In this document: piece by piece, positions 1 through 8,300 of the stretch
How positions within the stretch are numbered: the first letter of the stretch is position 1
Layout: every line of letters starts with the position of its first letter
NCBI RefSeq assembly: GCF_003704095.1
Contig: NW_020845941.1
Span: 186,001-250,000, forward strand
DNA length: 64,000 nt
Source: Pocillopora damicornis
Taxonomy: Eukaryota
Direction of reading: 5' to 3'
Translations under genes and position numbers: made by a program
Notes under the pieces: generated by a model
Seen by the model: the letters and a program-made list of their open reading frames with translations, nothing else
Told to the model about the DNA's origin: nothing
The model's database searches: none

Positions 1-651
1 GATTCTTAGTCGGGTTCACAATTTGAAAAAAAGTCTCTTCAACACTTTGTTTATACCGACAGATATTTCCGCACTGGTTAACAAAATCTTCAACTGCGAT
101 GTTTGAAAGGCTGACTTAGGCTCAGTGATGAGAACTTGACGACTATACTCAATCCTGAACCAAAATCCACTTGTAGCATTAGACAGAACTTAGGGAGGGA
201 GATTTTGGGGTCAAAATTAGAGAGCGGAAATCTTACTTGAACCCTCGACACTTCATCTCCTTATAGAGGGTCTTTTACAAAATTAGCAAAGATTCCAAAG
301 CAAAAAAATATCCTAAATATCTGTTGAGAAAATAGTTGGAAACTAGTTGGAAAGATCCTCACTCGCGTATGCCATTAGTGTAGAACGAAGATAATCTTAT
401 TCTACTACGAACTTGGATGAAAAAATCGGCCAGTTTCGGTTTTTCGCCTTTCTATAGAAAAGTCAAACATCACGTACATTTTAAGTTGACAGTGAACACA
501 CGTATAGTTTTATCTCATGCGTAGTCATTGTTTAAGTGTGCCTCTTGAAACAAAAGCGAAAAAATATGTATACAAATTGATTTATCAAGAAAATTACGCG
601 GATTTCATATCTTGCTGAGTCAATATCATCAGTTCTGTTCTTGACATGAAT

Positions 652-1050
652 ATAGTCGCACCTGTAATAAGTGGCAGTCGGTTGCCAAAGTCCCGAGTTT
701 GTTTCTCCTTGATCACTGTAATTTTCACTTCTATTAAACGGTCACCTCTATCATGCGGTCGCGTTACACTTCGCTGAGTCCAAACGGCCTTTTTCTCTTA
801 TCTTTCACCTGTATTGAACGGTCAATTAAAGCCGAACCACTCAAATAAAACTAAGAATAATCTTTCAAGTAATTTTTGAACCATGTTTTTTCCCAAAATC
901 AAACTGTAAGTAGTATTTTTGAGCAAAATTCTGAACATTAAGTGGCGTAAGGTGGCGCTGTTTATCGTTTTTCTGTAGTAACCCCTAACCGTATTGAGCG
1001 GTCACCTTATCATTCCCCATGAGTGACCGTTTAATACAAGTTCGACTGCA
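652..1050. mobile_element. Tc1/mariner-like MITE
   Basis: Ends ATAGTCGCACCTGTAATAAG and TTTAATACAAGTTCGACTG are imperfect inverted repeats. Internal TATT(G/A)ARCGGTCA subrepeats. Confidence 0.55.
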
Positions 1051-1583
1051 CAAAGCTTAACTTGTATTTTTCCAGTGCTCTGGAAAATTAACTTAAAGAA
1101 AGAAATGAAGCATTGAGGTTTATACGACCCTTGAACTTTCAAGATTTTTGTGATTAGTAATTCGCCCTTGTAAGTACTACACATTTCTTTTTTGATGAGT
1201 TAGGAGAATTTCATGTTAAATAGAAGTGTTACCTTTTGGCTGATGAACGGTTTGTCTTCTTTTCATCGCCCGGGAAATGTACGAAATTGCGTGGAGAATC
1301 TAAATGTCAATCACTTCTGAAAGCACAAGGGGTTTTAATTCGATGGAGCCGAAAATTGAAATTTCAGCACAATTTTTCTTCTTACGGAGTAGTCGAGTAG
1401 GAATTGTTCAATAATGAATCTTTGCTGTGAAGTCTGGGAAAAAGTTGCGCGGAAACCTCATCTCACCCCTAAGTTTAGCAAAGAACAAGGAACTTTATTA
1501 TTTTATTGACAGTGGACTGGCAGTATCCGTATAAAATGCGGGATGCACTTATTACTGGATTTTACTCTTTTCTTTTCTCCTAG

Positions 1584-1862
1584 AACAACTATAACATTCC
1601 GAAGCATCGAACGCAAGCTGAAAGATGCGCGGCAGCCCAGCTTCTTCTATCCCATAATCCACCGTGCACCGTCACAGTGGACACAATGCTAGACGCCGCT
1701 AACCTAGCTTATGGCGCAAGCCCAGAAAGATTTTATATCATCCGGGACAGTAAAATAGTCTACCAGGGAGGGCCCGGGCCCATGTCATACAATGTAAATG
1801 AAGTAAGAGCTTGGCTGGAGAATTACGCTGGAAAGCTCTCAAGTAAAGGGCGAGGAGAATGA
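1584..1862 (+). CDS. Iodothyronine deiodinase (DIO1-like), terminal exon only; upstream exons lie outside the window
   Basis: After a polypyrimidine-TAG acceptor (1581-1583) the frame reads NNYNIPKHRTQAERCAAAQLLLSHNPPCTVTVDTMLDAANLAYGASPERFYIIRDSKIVYQGGPGPMSYNVNEVRAWLE. This matches the deiodinase C-terminus (H..xxDR, VVDTM, AYxAxPERLY, YxGGxGP.xY). Confidence 0.9.
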   Translation, partial: NNYNIPKHRTQAERCAAAQLLLSHNPPCTVTVDTMLDAANLAYGASPERFYIIRDSKIVYQGGPGPMSYNVNEVRAWLENYAGKLSSKGRGE

Positions 1863-2270
1863 TGCAGCTACCAAACGAACGTCGTTAAATGTGGAGTATA
1901 TATTTTAAACAGCCAGTCATGGCTCGTATAATAGTGTGAATCAAAAGAGTTTGTGCCCAGAGGAACGATAGCCCATCTCAGAAATTCTATCCGATTATAA
2001 TTATCCAATCAATAGTGGGGCGAGCCTTTCCCAGAATGACCGGAAAGTAGGAAACGAGAACGGTACCAAAAAAACTATATTTATACCGTCGAGTCTTACT
2101 TGCCAAGTGCAATTGTCAAGAATTCAAAAGGTTTACGTGATAGACTTAAGCAAAAAATCCTTGTTACACCACGATATGAGAAGGAAACCTTGCTAGAGCA
2201 AGAATTTGTTTTAAACATTTCAAGTCTCCTTGTCATCAAATGTCGTTCTCGAATTGCATATTTCAGGAAA

Positions 2271-2333
2271 TTTATTATTATAATCATCATTATTATTAAT
2301 ATTATTAATATTATTACTATTATCATTATTATT
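2271..2333. repeat. Imperfect (ATT)n microsatellite
   Basis: ttattattataatcatcattattattaatattattaat... Confidence 0.85.
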
Positions 2334-3726
2334 TTCACAGAAAGGAAATTTCTCAAGGGGCAATTTGAATGGGAAAAATTGTTGCTCAAAGAAGAGTCAT
2401 TTATCGGGGTAGCGAAACTCCGAGCTCTGCGGGTTTTCGCCCTGCGCTGGTCAATCGTTCCTCTGGTCTGTATCCTCTCTGTAAGGGGTTCTGAGAGTGC
2501 TGTAGGTTTTAAATATGAGCAGTTAGCTTTTAAAACTGCTTCAAGACGGATTAGTAGTTTGGCGTGAAAAACTAGCCATGACTTATTTCTCGGATTTCGA
2601 AAAAATTAAGAGGTTAATATTTTATTTAGCAATCGTATTCAGAGTTGTAGATATTTAACACATTACTATCATTTCCTATGGTTCAATACTCGTTTCCCCT
2701 GAAAATTTGTTTATGTTCACAATGGCTTAAGTATTTGCTGGTATTATTGGGAAAAGGCGAAGACTACCAAGTTCCTTAAGCTACAGCAAAAACCGATCGA
2801 ATTGATATGTCCAGATGTTAAGAGACTGCTAGATAATAAGGTGAAAATTAGTCAATTTTATAGACGGAAAAATTGGAAATATTGCGTTACTAATTTTATG
2901 CCAGGAAGAAGCCCATGACAATATTAGAATTCTTAGTTAATGATTGAAAAGAAATCTATAGCTAACAGTTTGAAATGATAGAAAAAAACACCAACGAGAC
3001 ATGACATAACCGATGGGGTATGAGGATTAAAAGACCTGTTTTTTGTTAGAGAAAGGAGGAAGGGAGAGGGACCGTGCAATATGGGGAAAGTCATTATATT
3101 TTATGCAACCCAAAAGCGCAGGGCCACAAATATTTAAGGGCTTTAGGGATGGCCATATCTCTTTTGGATCACATTAGGAGAAGGGTTACAGTTTTTTTCT
3201 GCAAGAAGTAATTTAAGGGATATAAAAAACTGGTGTGGAAAAAAAAAGAAGAAATCTCCCCCCTCCTTCCTCTCTCATCTCTAATAAATGACAGGCCCCT
3301 GCCTGATTAAATTGAAAATGACCGCAAAAGGGGAAATTTAACGAATCAGGAAGTATTTTCAACGCGAGTTATACTTCCAATCTTTAGCCCCTTGACTTTT
3401 GAGATCTGATTATTTATTCTTCTAACTTATGTTGTTACATCTCCTTGTTGGTTTGTCTAGAGAATCTGGTTTTATATCAAAACAATGTCTCTTAATATTA
3501 CCAATTTTTTATTTTATTTTCATGACCTGTCTGCTTAACTGTGTAGCCAAATTGTCAGGAGAAGATAAGCTGTGATCACTTGGTAGTAAAAAAGGTTACG
3601 TCAAATCGATATATCAGCGATACGATGGCTAAAAAATGAATCTTAGTTGAACTGAAATCAAAGAATGAGAAGTATATTTAAACTAGGAAGCTCTTGTGGC
3701 ATGGCCTGTGTAGGAGGAAAGTTATG

Positions 3727-3808
3727 ACATCAAGTTGACGTTATGAAGGCTTGGACGCAAAAGTGCTTCAAGCACAACTTCTGAGCCAGAGGTTTATCAA
3801 CTTCATGT
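3727..3808 (+). promoter_or_regulatory. SECIS element (type II) in the deiodinase 3' UTR
   Basis: Helix I AAGTTGA/TCAACTT. Core ATGAA (3743) opposite AGAG (3788). Helix II GGCTTGGA/TCTGAGCC. Unpaired AAAA 12 nt after ATGA. Apical mini-stem GTGCT/AGCAC. AATAAA at 3866. Confidence 0.85.
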
Positions 3809-4069
3809 GGAAACTTATTTTAGTAGCCTGAACTGTAAAGAGCGACAATGATGACCTTGCCACTAAATAAATGTTCTCTAAATAATTCATATCAAGGCCT
3901 TGTTAGTCATCAGAGATGTGGGATTTTTGGTTCGTCGTTGCTGCTAGTCTCCTTCGCAGCCTTTGCTTGGTCTCGTCACAGATCGTTCTCTCTCAGCAAA
4001 ACACGCGATCTCCACGCCGTGTTTTACCTATCAAAAGGCCTATAAAGGGGAGGGAGTGACGGTAAGTAA

Positions 4070-4280: not shown

Positions 4281-5382
4281 ACAGACAATTCCGATCACTG
4301 AAACTAAACAAACTTTTCCCACAGGAATGAGAAAAATAGACATTGACATATAACGTCCAGACGTTCCTTCTTGAAAGACTATTCAAACCTTTAACTTCTT
4401 ACAGAATTGAGTTCTAGAGAAATATATGTGTTCTCAGAAAAAAAAAATTCTGCATCCCTCGAATTAAGCGTACTTGGAAAAGAACGTTTGTAAATCATGG
4501 TTACGTAACAAAAGAAACCCGAAAACACCTAAATGTTATTTAACACTGACATAAATATTGACTCAGGTCACAGTAGATAAGCATTGTTTCAATCAGGAAT
4601 CGAAAGGGTATCTTTCTTCAATCTTCAGATGACTTGTTGTCAGCTTTACATTAAGGCTCTCAAAATTGGTTGTTTAGAAACAAAAAACCTCAAAGACTAC
4701 CTGCTTCAGTCACAGAGTCAAAACGATACAGCTGGGTGAAATCATAGTTAGTAGAGGAGACTAACTACTAACTATGGTGAAATGAACAACACCTCACATT
4801 CCAGGGAAACGTTTGAGCATAGTTAGTTAGTCTCCTCTACTAACTATGGTTTGAGCAGCAACCTCTCTAACTCTCTTTTTCTATATCGGGGACAAATTCT
4901 GCGCATTAAAAGGTAATTTGATCAAATTTGGGCAGTCGCCTCTTCTAAACACATTCTCATTTCGCTGATGACAAGAAACAAGAAACAGTGAGAAAATAAA
5001 ACATTTAAAATGACCGATCACAATTTCTCTTCTCTGAAGAAGAAAATGTAAAGTGAAGGAAATGTATACGTTTAACAATAATTTCGATCGAGAAATCATT
5101 TTCCCTCCGGTCACTGTTTATTATTCAACAATATTCAGATTGAGTAATTCTATTTTTCCTACAAAACCTGTGATTCTTTGTTTTCTTAATTCTTCACCAC
5201 TCACGGGACATTTTACCCGCCTTATAAATATACATGTACCATCCACGTCGCGTATTTATAAGACGTCGCTCTTGAATTAACAGATATTTAAAAGCCCAGG
5301 AGTTAGTTTTTTTTGTTTAAATGTACTAAAGACATTAATAAATTATATACCAGTCAAACATTTTTAACAAAGTTCGTTACTC

Positions 5383-8300
5383 TCATGACTTATTTCCGGA
5401 AGCAAATAAATCTCCTGCAGAAGGCAACGGGGCTAAACCTCCTGCTAGATCTGGAAGCTTCGTTAGGTCTGGAAGATTTTCTAAATGGGATTTGAGCTCT
5501 TGTCTGACAAGTTGAACTTTTTCCTGTTTGGCCTTGTATTCCTGAAAGAAATACATAGATAAGCAACTCCCTTGTAAAAAACAATGGTGGTTTACGACAT
5601 TTATCTGAGGATAAAACTGTCTCTGTTACAGAATCTGAGAGATTTTGTGTTTGATCTATAGTTTGGTTTACCTTTAATTTTTCGTAATTTGTGTCAAACT
5701 GGAATTCAATGTAAAGGCAGCCTTCTCAGCAATGCTTGACCTTTGCACGAGGTACAGCATAGTGGCAAGTAGAAGTACATTGCAGCCACACCTGGCGTAC
5801 TTTGACATAAAAAAACCAGCTTAAAAACCTTTGTTTAGTATTATATACCAAACAGTACAGACAAAAGATTTGTAGCAAACATCAGAGGAAGGAATTCAAA
5901 CCTTCCAGTTGCCTTTTGCATTTGAATAGATCTGTGCCTAACCTCCCTAATCCTACTTCTTGCTTAGCACATAGTGTGTTAAGAAAGCTCTTCCTTCGGA
6001 ATACTTACCTCAAGTTTTTTCTCTGATTCTGCTAGTTTATCTTTCTGGAGCTGTATAAATGCAGCCAGCATTTTGGATATTGTTGTTCTATCTTCTAGCT
6101 CGGCAGCAAGTCTACCATTATAGTCCGCCAATAATAAACAAGCTTCATCGACAATTTTGGAGAGACGATCGCCAGTTTCTTTATCTAAATCATGCGACAT
6201 GTAAATTCTGTTAAAAAGACTACTTCTTACAAACATTGTTTGCTAAAATGGGAATGGACAAACTACACATAATGTACTGCCTTTACCTTCAATTTTTTCT
6301 AAAAGTGACACATCTTGGACTTCAGCTGGTAAATTAGCAATCTTTTCTCTGACAGCAGCATCTTGTGAAGCTGAGTTTTCAAGCTCCATTAATGCTTTAA
6401 TTAAATCCTCTGGCTAAGACCAAAACAACAACATTCATTAGAAAATGACTGATCACAAAGTCAAGTAAACATTGTGGTTAATAATTTCTATAACATTAGA
6501 CTCTAATAATGACTTCACTCAGGCTGTGGCAACATCCAACACTGTCATAAAAACAACTTATTAATGGGACTAATCTCACAAGCAAGACTGCTATAGACTG
6601 CATGATCAGTTTACCAGGATTTCCTGTTATTAATCAAGTGATAGTAGAAAAGTGTTGAGTTAATCTAAAGGATGTTTTCATCAGTACCAAGGGAAGAGCT
6701 CACTGTAAGTTTGATGTTATTAATTGGTTCATGCATGACAGCTGATTTGTTACTTTTGCCCTCATGTTCATGGCTGTAAGGCTCAAGTACAGTTTATCAA
6801 CTGTTTTTTTTTTAAATCTAACTCTTCACTTGTCTCTCATACTGACTCAGGTTGTCAAAATGCCAGTCATTGTCATTGTCGTTGTCCTTTTTAACTCTTT
6901 CACACCCACAAATGACCAAGAAGTATTATAACATAGCTAGTAAATTTGTCTAATCAAATTCAATTGNNNNNNNNNNNNNNNNNNNNNNNNNNNNNNNNNN
7001 NNNNNNNNNNNNNNNNNNNNNNNNNNNNNNNNNNNNNNNNNNNNNNNNNNNNNNNNNNNNNNNNNNTAACCTGTAAATATTAAGCACTCTCCCACCTCTC
7101 CTAATAAAGCAAAGAAAAAAACTGTTTTCCCCAGCACTGTATACAGAAACTCACCCAAACACTTGTGTAGCTTCACTAAGAAAGTTGCTTCATACACATT
7201 TCTCTCAGTCCATATTGATATCAGCCTTTCAAGACCACGTATAGCTTCCACTGATCCGCCCCTGGATTATAAAACAATTAACAGCTACATTGAATCGAAG
7301 GAACTTTGTATTTGCACAAATTCAAACAAACAACCAAAATATTTAGGTGTATCAAAAACTGAATTCAAAACTTCATCAATCTGGATCACAGTATTACTCC
7401 ATTGGACATACAGGAGGATTTAACCTTTTAACTCCCGAGATATCATTAGTAATTCCCCTTACTATCTGTCATACAGTTCTTGTGATGTTAGTTTGGAGAA
7501 TTTGGTATTGGATCAACTTATAATCCCCTAATTGATATTTTTCTTAATTCTTATCACTTGTCTGCTTGATATTGTATTGATATTTAAAGGAGAAATTCTG
7601 TCTTGGTCACTCATGGGAGTTAAAGGTTTAAGGGGTACATGTAAAAAACAAAGAGACCTTTTCTGGTTGCTAGTACAACTTAAATTATTTTAAGAATGCA
7701 GATAATTACTTACTGTGCACAATGCTGAAACGCAGCTGATAAGACATGTTTAAATTCATTTAAAAACTCTGTGCCTTTCCTTTTTCCATTTTGGAGTACA
7801 TCATTAGCCAGGAACATGAAGGTAAGCTTTTTGCTTGTCCTTGCTGCAAATAAACATGGAGAATGTTAAAGCTTACAAGATAATTAACAAAACTGAACAT
7901 AAAGGGTTTCTTGTCATTTGTACACAACACAGTTAGTGGGAAAATGTGAAATGAACAAATCAATTGGCCTGATGAGCTTCAAGGAGGTGAGCTATTAAGG
8001 TCCCTTCTATGTTTTGGTATCTACAGGAATAGAAATTTACTTACTGGATACTCTGCACTTGATAAAATCTGAGTATTTTAATATGGATTCATTGTAACTC
8101 TTTTAAAAAATGCCCTTATGGCTTTAACCATTGTTGTTAATCAATTGCTATTAAATTGCATTAAATAGATAAATAAGTCATAAGTTAAACAAAATATTAA
8201 AAAAGATCATGCATCAGTTTTCTGATAGATATCACTGGATGACAAGAGTCCGCCAAAATAAACTTAGAATTAGGCAAATCAAATAAAAATATAACACATA

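Follow-up and report, generated by a model that had tools for sequence, protein, structure and literature searches.

The window analysed here, a stretch of 64,000 nucleotides of the Pocillopora damicornis genome (G000:C2576:186001-250000), opens within the single intron of a two-exon gene of the deiodinase family (Table 1). Positions given without a prefix are those of the window, and L025 is the locus record that spans the gene. By a family search of the genome, exon 1 was located 3.6 kb ahead of the window start. This exon encodes an N-terminal membrane helix (hydropathy peak of 2.29 at residues 11-30), one in-frame TGA at codon 120, in the context NFGSSS-U-QPF, and then the sequence EEAHPSDGW. 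Exon 2 follows an AG acceptor at 1582-1583 and is open from 1584 to 1859, with a stop TGA at 1860-1862. It supplies the C-terminal 92 of the 252 residues of the product, including the motif YGASPERF, with His168, the distal Cys188, Pro207-Glu208-Arg209 and Pro224 as landmarks. In profile searches, exon 2 alone matched PF00837 with 107 bits (E 9e-31), and the whole protein matched it above the family cut-off with 229 bits (E 5e-68) over profile positions 28-236. A preliminary description of this DNA had placed the last exon of a deiodinase with a PER motif at 1584, which the PF00837 match and YGASPERF bear out. It had also anticipated an upstream in-frame TGA within an S-C-T/S-U-P motif; the TGA is present, but the motif around it reads S-S-S-U-Q-P. 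A Cys codon in place of the TGA is ruled out by the reading of exon 1.

Table 1. Features of the deiodinase gene and positions of its paralogues (window positions unless a genome contig or locus record is named)
Feature	Position	Strand	Description
Exon 1	G000:C2576:181953-182432 = L025:553-1032	+	Outside window; 160 codons from ATG
Intron, 3' part	1..1583	+	Single 5151-nt intron, GT..AG, phase 0
Exon 2, coding part	1584..1862	+	Residues 161-252 and true stop TGA
3' UTR	1863..3895	+	About 2.0 kb; RNA contigs cover up to L025:8443-8495
SECIS element, type II	3727..3808	+	Helix I, AUGAA/AGAG core, helix II, unpaired AAAA, apical mini-stem
AATAAA; poly(A) site	3866-3871; 3895	+	Motif and contig ends
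Paralogues B, C	G000:C2576:127054-128071, 136048-137096		Cys, no SECIS candidate
Three Cys paralogues	G000:C3164:129082-130444, 133465-134561, 140372-141438		No SECIS candidate
Two TGA paralogues	G000:C472:251528-252977, 260101-264182		SECIS candidate each
TGA paralogue	G000:C3129:144855-146628		SECIS candidate

The surroundings of the gene hold several other features. Between paralogue B and the Sec gene there is a polycystin-1-like gene with PKD, REJ, PLAT and channel domains (L014:3189-7335, L013:2478-5132; minus strand), and the last exon of a CREPT-domain gene (5386-5544, minus strand) converges on the deiodinase 3' end. Several tubulin genes occupy both strands at about 29500-49700, one frame being assigned by Pfam and the others by similar translations. 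At 4746-4845 there is a near-perfect inverted repeat of 100 nt, possibly a small transposon remnant, whose match to a miRNA model was weak, at 27 bits against a cut-off of 70.

In order to follow the transcript, seven of the 22 sequencing runs listed were compared with the locus. The joint between exons 1 and 2, skipping 5151 nt and keeping the TGA, was found in all four RNA runs, which come from four studies. Differences in exon 1 numbered 0, 3, 4 and 4 per RNA run, with none at the TGA or the following codon. The codon after Sec varies (Arg, Gln, Pro), with CGA or CCA in orthologues; the Gln found here was kept in all four RNA runs, which rules it out as an assembly error. At the 3' end, contigs from runs X17, X14 and X8 ended at L025:8456, at L025:8484 with adapter sequence (X14) and at L025:8495, which is window 3895, with 20 A's (X8, a run that is only presumed to be RNA). 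The poly(A) site is 87 nt beyond the SECIS hairpin, and the DNA-like run X19 continues past it. With RNA contigs running across the hairpin and poly(A) at 3895, the SECIS lies inside the mRNA, as had been proposed, and an mRNA ending before 3727 is ruled out. Judging by its length, X14 record 1 would carry UGA and SECIS together, the other coverage consisting of separate contigs; for both spliced orthologues, L032 and L033, UGA and SECIS are in one record.

Further features of the transcript were noted. In run X1, one contig reaches over 500 nt ahead of the ATG (L025:300-552), three other runs beginning 18-38 nt before it, which possibly reflects a longer 5' form of the transcript. The 3' UTR holds an ATT repeat near 2270-2340 and a 175-codon open frame (2040-2564) for which no Pfam match was found. 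The Sec UGA is 117 nt before the sole exon junction (L025:913-1032). By the 50-55 nt rule for nonsense-mediated decay, this distance would leave the mRNA open to such decay when selenium is short.

The hairpin in the 3' UTR begins 1865 nt behind the stop codon. Its helix I spans 3727 to 3808, its core is formed by AUGAA at 3743-3747 and AGAG at 3788-3791, and the unpaired AAAA at 3759-3762 is 11 nt above the core. This is the anatomy of a type II SECIS, i.e., an AUGA/GA core, an unpaired AA 10-13 nt above it, helices I and II and an apical mini-stem. Together with the spacing and the AATAAA at 3866, it confirms the earlier call of such an element about 1.9 kb downstream and before AATAAA. The preliminary description had named a covariance model as a test; Rfam SECIS_1 (RF00031) aligned to the hairpin over its full length, but with 23.5 bits (E 0.53), below the gathering score of 35. 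When run genome-wide on G000, SECIS_1 returned three weak matches, the best at 33.9 bits and none at the cut-off, and missed 3727-3808. Applied to the five other candidates, it listed two, F (31.1 bits) and L032 (24.5 bits), and not E, G or L033. The Rfam model is insensitive for these coral SECIS candidates. Its best match in the genome lies at G000:C1708:1290035-1290099 (L026).

The unconstrained minimum-energy fold of the element, from a program that holds no model of the G-A core, is another, two-hairpin structure (-25.4 versus -22.9 kcal/mol for the SECIS fold, a difference of 2.5 kcal/mol). When the 2 kb UTR was compared with the orthologue mRNA L032 by local blastn, the best match covered exactly 3727-3808 (82 nt, 78%, E 2e-13) and the next-best only 42 nt (E 0.001); the SECIS hairpin is the best-conserved stretch of the 3' UTR in this comparison. 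No variant fell within the hairpin in any of four runs (X17, X14, X8, X19), and the preceding 330 nt carried eight substitution and two insertion sites. In a three-row SECIS alignment, 94% of cells were paired, compared with 26-40% in slid controls. Five one-sided changes left the pair intact, and two-sided changes were found in 0 of 24, with only two lineages to compare. Our own loose SECIS pattern gave 17 hits in 428 kb on both strands, 13 of them unrelated; a stricter filter, set after four candidates had been seen, retained just those four. In three orthologue loci, the loose pattern also matches within an intron.

The TGA itself sits at the catalytic position, aligned with the Cys/Sec of the structures 9H48 and 4TR3, and occurs at the same codon in all 11 orthologue loci. 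Compared with L032, dN/dS was 0.058 over 240 codons, and purifying selection acts across the reading frame. The genome also holds Sec machinery, i.e., two tRNA-Sec genes, SepSecS and eEFSec domain III. When the 4.5 kb downstream of each stop codon were scanned with the pattern, SECIS candidates came up in all four TGA paralogues and in none of the five Cys paralogues, a concordance expected by chance once in 126 by a hand count; the Rfam model likewise listed none in the five Cys loci. Taken together, these data indicate that the gene almost certainly encodes a selenoprotein. The earlier proposal of a true deiodinase-family selenoprotein in an animal without a thyroid is upheld by the conservation of the TGA, the SECIS and the splicing. 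Automated models of such genes had been described as often truncated, and those of orthologues are broken at the TGA: the Porites evermanni model is missing about 16 residues around Sec, that of Porites lobata likewise has no Sec motif, and that of Oculina begins downstream of the motif.

The family search of G000 identified nine two-exon deiodinase genes, four with TGA and five with Cys, and the intron position is identical in the eight further paralogues. The motif is P-E-R in all four Sec paralogues and P-I-R in all five with Cys. Among 63 full-length rows (near-duplicates included), Sec was accompanied by an acidic residue at the position of Dio3 Glu259 in 34 of 34 cases and Cys by a non-acidic residue, mostly Ile, Asn or Thr, in 21 of 23, six rows having another active-site residue. 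On the tree, this link amounts to five independent pairs (median p 0.125) and is not significant. Two peculiarities of single paralogues were observed. The SECIS candidate of paralogue G (C472:251350, minus strand), which is unlisted by Rfam, stands out by the stability of its upper stem (-20 kcal/mol) and has AAG at the loop. Paralogues H and I (C3164) have Trp at the proximal position, in an S-W-T-C-P motif that is also present in other relatives.

To place the protein within its family, a tree was built under LG+G4 from 53 rows selected among the proteins collected, with 179 columns and with those for the traits masked. The deiodinase gene and four orthologues formed a clade (100/99) within a 13-row anthozoan group (98/95), of which the other eight members, including Nematostella and paralogues B and C, all carry Cys. 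The nearest named relatives are from Porites and Oculina. The Cys forms all fall to one side in the best tree (77/90, unstarred), a position that fits a loss of Sec in those forms; an origin of Sec from Cys need not be assumed. The exon had previously been described as DIO1-like on account of its PER motif, and this placement did not hold. A clade with the DIO1 group, which was fixed for the test after inspection of a quick 115-row tree and whose rows, like those of DIO2 and DIO3, we presume to be correctly labelled by their motifs, was rejected (AU p 0.020). In addition, Pro precedes E-R in 65 of 115 relatives (17 were unmatched by the pattern); PER, the commonest state among them, is therefore no marker of DIO1.

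A structural model of the protein (P0066, with Trp at the Sec position) had a pLDDT of 83.6. A fold search with this model returned 9H48 and 4TR3 first (E 1e-17, TM 0.81-0.83 by target), with 42-45% identity in the structural match to these Dio2 and Dio3 structures, and the next fold at 9e-7. As modelled, the protein has a thioredoxin fold with the deiodinase insertion and an N-terminal membrane helix. The relay residues Ser167, Thr169, Tyr197, Glu200, His202 and His219 of Dio3 have counterparts in S117, S119 (Ser for Thr), Y147, E150, H152 and H168; by alignment, Cys188, Glu208 and Arg209 equal residues named for Dio2/Dio3, and U120 is the catalytic site. The roles of relay, cleft and substrate-contact residues are those given in the accessible text of the Dio structure papers (PMC11592359, PMC7506546), in which the Glu of P-E-R is proposed to contact the amino group of the substrate.

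The active site differs from those of all three vertebrate types and from the canonical S-C/A-T/S-U-P-P/S loop, reading S-S-S-U-Q-P, with Ser118 for the proximal Cys and Gln121 for Pro. There is no equivalent of Dio3 Asp211 or Arg275, and the DIO2 insertions are absent. An SSSURP loop was found in 11 of 15 close relatives, and Pro follows Sec in some orthologues as well. Among the 74 of 150 family representatives with a readable motif, 61 had Pro at +1 and 42 had Cys at -2. The active-site loop thus varies in invertebrates, and the departures seen here are unusual but not unique. The coral clade has no proximal Cys and mostly Arg or Gln in place of the Pro after Sec. In excerpts of published work, human DIO1 without its proximal Cys was not reduced by glutathione, and DTT still worked (PMC9141512); DIO2, with Ala at this site, may turn over once, the missing Cys alone being an insufficient explanation.

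With moderate confidence, we read the locus as a spliced, polyadenylated coral deiodinase gene whose UGA is recoded via the SECIS and whose protein, by prediction, is a reductive dehalogenase anchored in the membrane and acting, most likely, on a two-ring, iodothyronine-type amino-acid compound. All steps after translation are drawn from vertebrate and ascidian enzymes. The in-frame UGA is very likely read as selenocysteine through the SECIS at 3727-3808. As in vertebrate enzymes, the selenolate of Sec120 would abstract the halogen in the form of I+, and the ring would be protonated by a relay made up of Ser117, Ser119, Tyr147, Glu150, His152 and His168. Pro207 would give a wide cleft, and Glu208-Arg209 would hold the amino-acid end of the substrate. 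Lacking the Dio3 anchors Asp211 and Arg275, the enzyme would bind with low affinity and be broad in its specificity. The usual selenenyl-sulfide recycling by glutathione would fail, since Ser118 replaces the proximal Cys, and cellular turnover may be slow or single, or may proceed via the distal Cys188 and another reductant. Given that corals have no thyroid-hormone receptor, the role would be to clear or recycle iodothyronine-type compounds or to tune a non-nuclear signal.

Published work, as far as the accessible parts of each source go, bears on this proposal. Iodothyronines or their acetic-acid derivatives are deiodinated by homologues of ascidians and amphioxus, the Cys enzyme of amphioxus accepting the acetic-acid derivatives only (PMC8143656). 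Cnidarians are described as having no thyroid-hormone receptor (PMC10083991) and their iodinated compounds as poorly characterised (PMC6851572), and corals are reported to contain iodinated compounds, mostly T4 (PMC13078365). Further sources cited, in part, are PMC11126969, PMC13487179, PMC13134290 and PMC8222990. A more elaborate scheme, which we regard as speculative and rather improbable, would divide the nine enzymes into Sec forms that carry the amino-group Glu and act on iodothyronine amino acids, and Cys forms without that Glu that act on deaminated derivatives. The present gene would then be an independently evolved, coral-wide, DIO2-like single-turnover switch that gates an iodinated spawning or metamorphosis signal without a thyroid-hormone receptor.

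Among other explanations, the one that survives best, though unlikely, is that the same selenoenzyme, with the same chemistry, has brominated or iodinated phenols, together with hydroxylated diphenyl ethers, as its natural substrates, which would come from food, algae or microbes. It would then serve in detoxification or halide salvage and play no part as a hormone enzyme. The varied active sites of the nine paralogues point to a range of substrates. The wide DIO1-type cleft, the missing Arg275 clamp and the absence of a thyroid receptor in cnidarians (PMC10083991, accessible text) also agree with this explanation. Excerpts of PMC7144113 speak on both sides, in that some PBDEs are debrominated by fish enzymes but the calculated interaction between C-Br and selenolate is weaker. 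Against these points stands Glu208-Arg209, the proposed amino-acid site, which is kept here and in all four Sec paralogues.

We consider it quite unlikely that the protein is a membrane-anchored selenium thiol oxidoreductase or peroxidase built on a deiodinase scaffold, with no halogenated substrate. Thioredoxin and peroxiredoxin folds do come next in the fold search, and U-[R/Q]-P aligns with C-K-P-C of the thioredoxin-like 2M72 (E 0.016). However, the deiodinase structures are eleven orders of magnitude ahead of other folds, the deiodinase-specific loop (YIEEAHPSDGW, His168) is wholly retained, and the active-site loop has no resolving Cys.

The preliminary description had further offered free iodo- or bromotyrosines as substrates of a Sec-dependent dehalogenase, and on published grounds this is improbable, a two-ring, iodothyronine-like substrate being likelier. 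The amino-acid site is kept, and the niche may be open, since a search of G000 for a nitroreductase-fold (IYD-type) gene, itself weak for an intron-rich genome, gave no candidate. Published accounts, in the parts available, nevertheless assign halotyrosines across metazoa to the flavin-dependent IYD, and we found no report of the deiodinase family acting on single-ring tyrosines. Finally, that the TGA is a real stop, leaving a pseudogene or a truncated product of 119 residues and a chance hairpin, is hardly credible: a SECIS score below the Rfam cut-off and the 13 unrelated hits of the loose scan are outweighed by the TGA shared by all 11 orthologue loci, the purifying selection along the reading frame, the conserved SECIS and its four-of-four versus none-of-five concordance with TGA.

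The favoured reading, that of a selenium-dependent deiodinase, extends what the accessible text of earlier surveys reports. In Jiang et al. 2012 (PMC3473315), Trichoplax has 11 Sec deiodinases, in clusters, and the only forms described for Nematostella are of the Cys type; a review that follows that survey mentions putative deiodinase-like selenoproteins in sea anemones (PMC8143656), and five deiodinase transcripts were reported for Edwardsiella (PMC3909931). Coral deiodinase expression has been linked to lunar phase (PMC6851572) and seen in the week before spawning (PMC12573721). A search for papers on Sec-type deiodinases of corals found none, with subscription journals and selenoprotein databases outside its scope; relevant information may be contained in the supplements of PMC3473315 and PMC3909931. 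As compared with the Cys-only cnidarian survey (PMC3473315, in the parts available), the coral gene belongs to a known enzyme family, has an unusual active site and is one of four Sec-type genes, by which selenium-dependent deiodination would be open to corals. Expression studies in corals do not separate Sec from Cys deiodinases, and public orthologue models delete or cut the active site; with corrected models, the question of thyroid-like signalling in cnidarians can be put to a direct test. The naturally occurring Ser and Arg/Gln replacements next to Sec bear on current ideas of deiodinase recycling.

In comparison with vertebrate DIO1-3 (4TR3 for Dio3, 9H48 for Dio2), the coral protein shares the membrane helix, the thioredoxin fold with the deiodinase loop, the catalytic UGA, the 3' UTR SECIS, the relay residues, the distal Cys and the E-R floor. 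It is the orthologue of none of them, and has Ser for the proximal Cys (Ala in DIO2) and Gln/Arg for the Pro after Sec. Its Pro207 is as in DIO1, but the Pro at Sec+2 is as in DIO2/3, and Asp211 and Arg275 have no equivalent. Unlike vertebrates, the coral host has neither a thyroid nor a thyroid receptor. Activity has been shown in chordate and, indirectly, mollusc enzymes; none was found for a cnidarian, and that of the coral protein is predicted. IYD, in the sources available, likewise carries out reductive dehalogenation of halogenated aromatic amino acids, with an unrelated fold and cofactor and on single-ring halotyrosines. The nearest clade is that of the Cys-type homologues of Nematostella, Actinostola, Desmophyllum and Oculina together with paralogues B and C (13 rows, 98/95), the last two sharing contig and intron position with the coral Sec gene. 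These anthozoan forms have Cys, P-I-R and, in B and C, no SECIS candidate, whereas the coral gene has Sec, P-E-R and a SECIS. As far as the accessible literature describes them, the enzyme of the ascidian Halocynthia mixes DIO1 and DIO2 traits (PMC8143656), and the Sec deiodinases of Trichoplax, amphioxus, molluscs and Halocynthia resemble the coral set in that Sec and Cys paralogues are expanded and clustered and SECIS elements are present.
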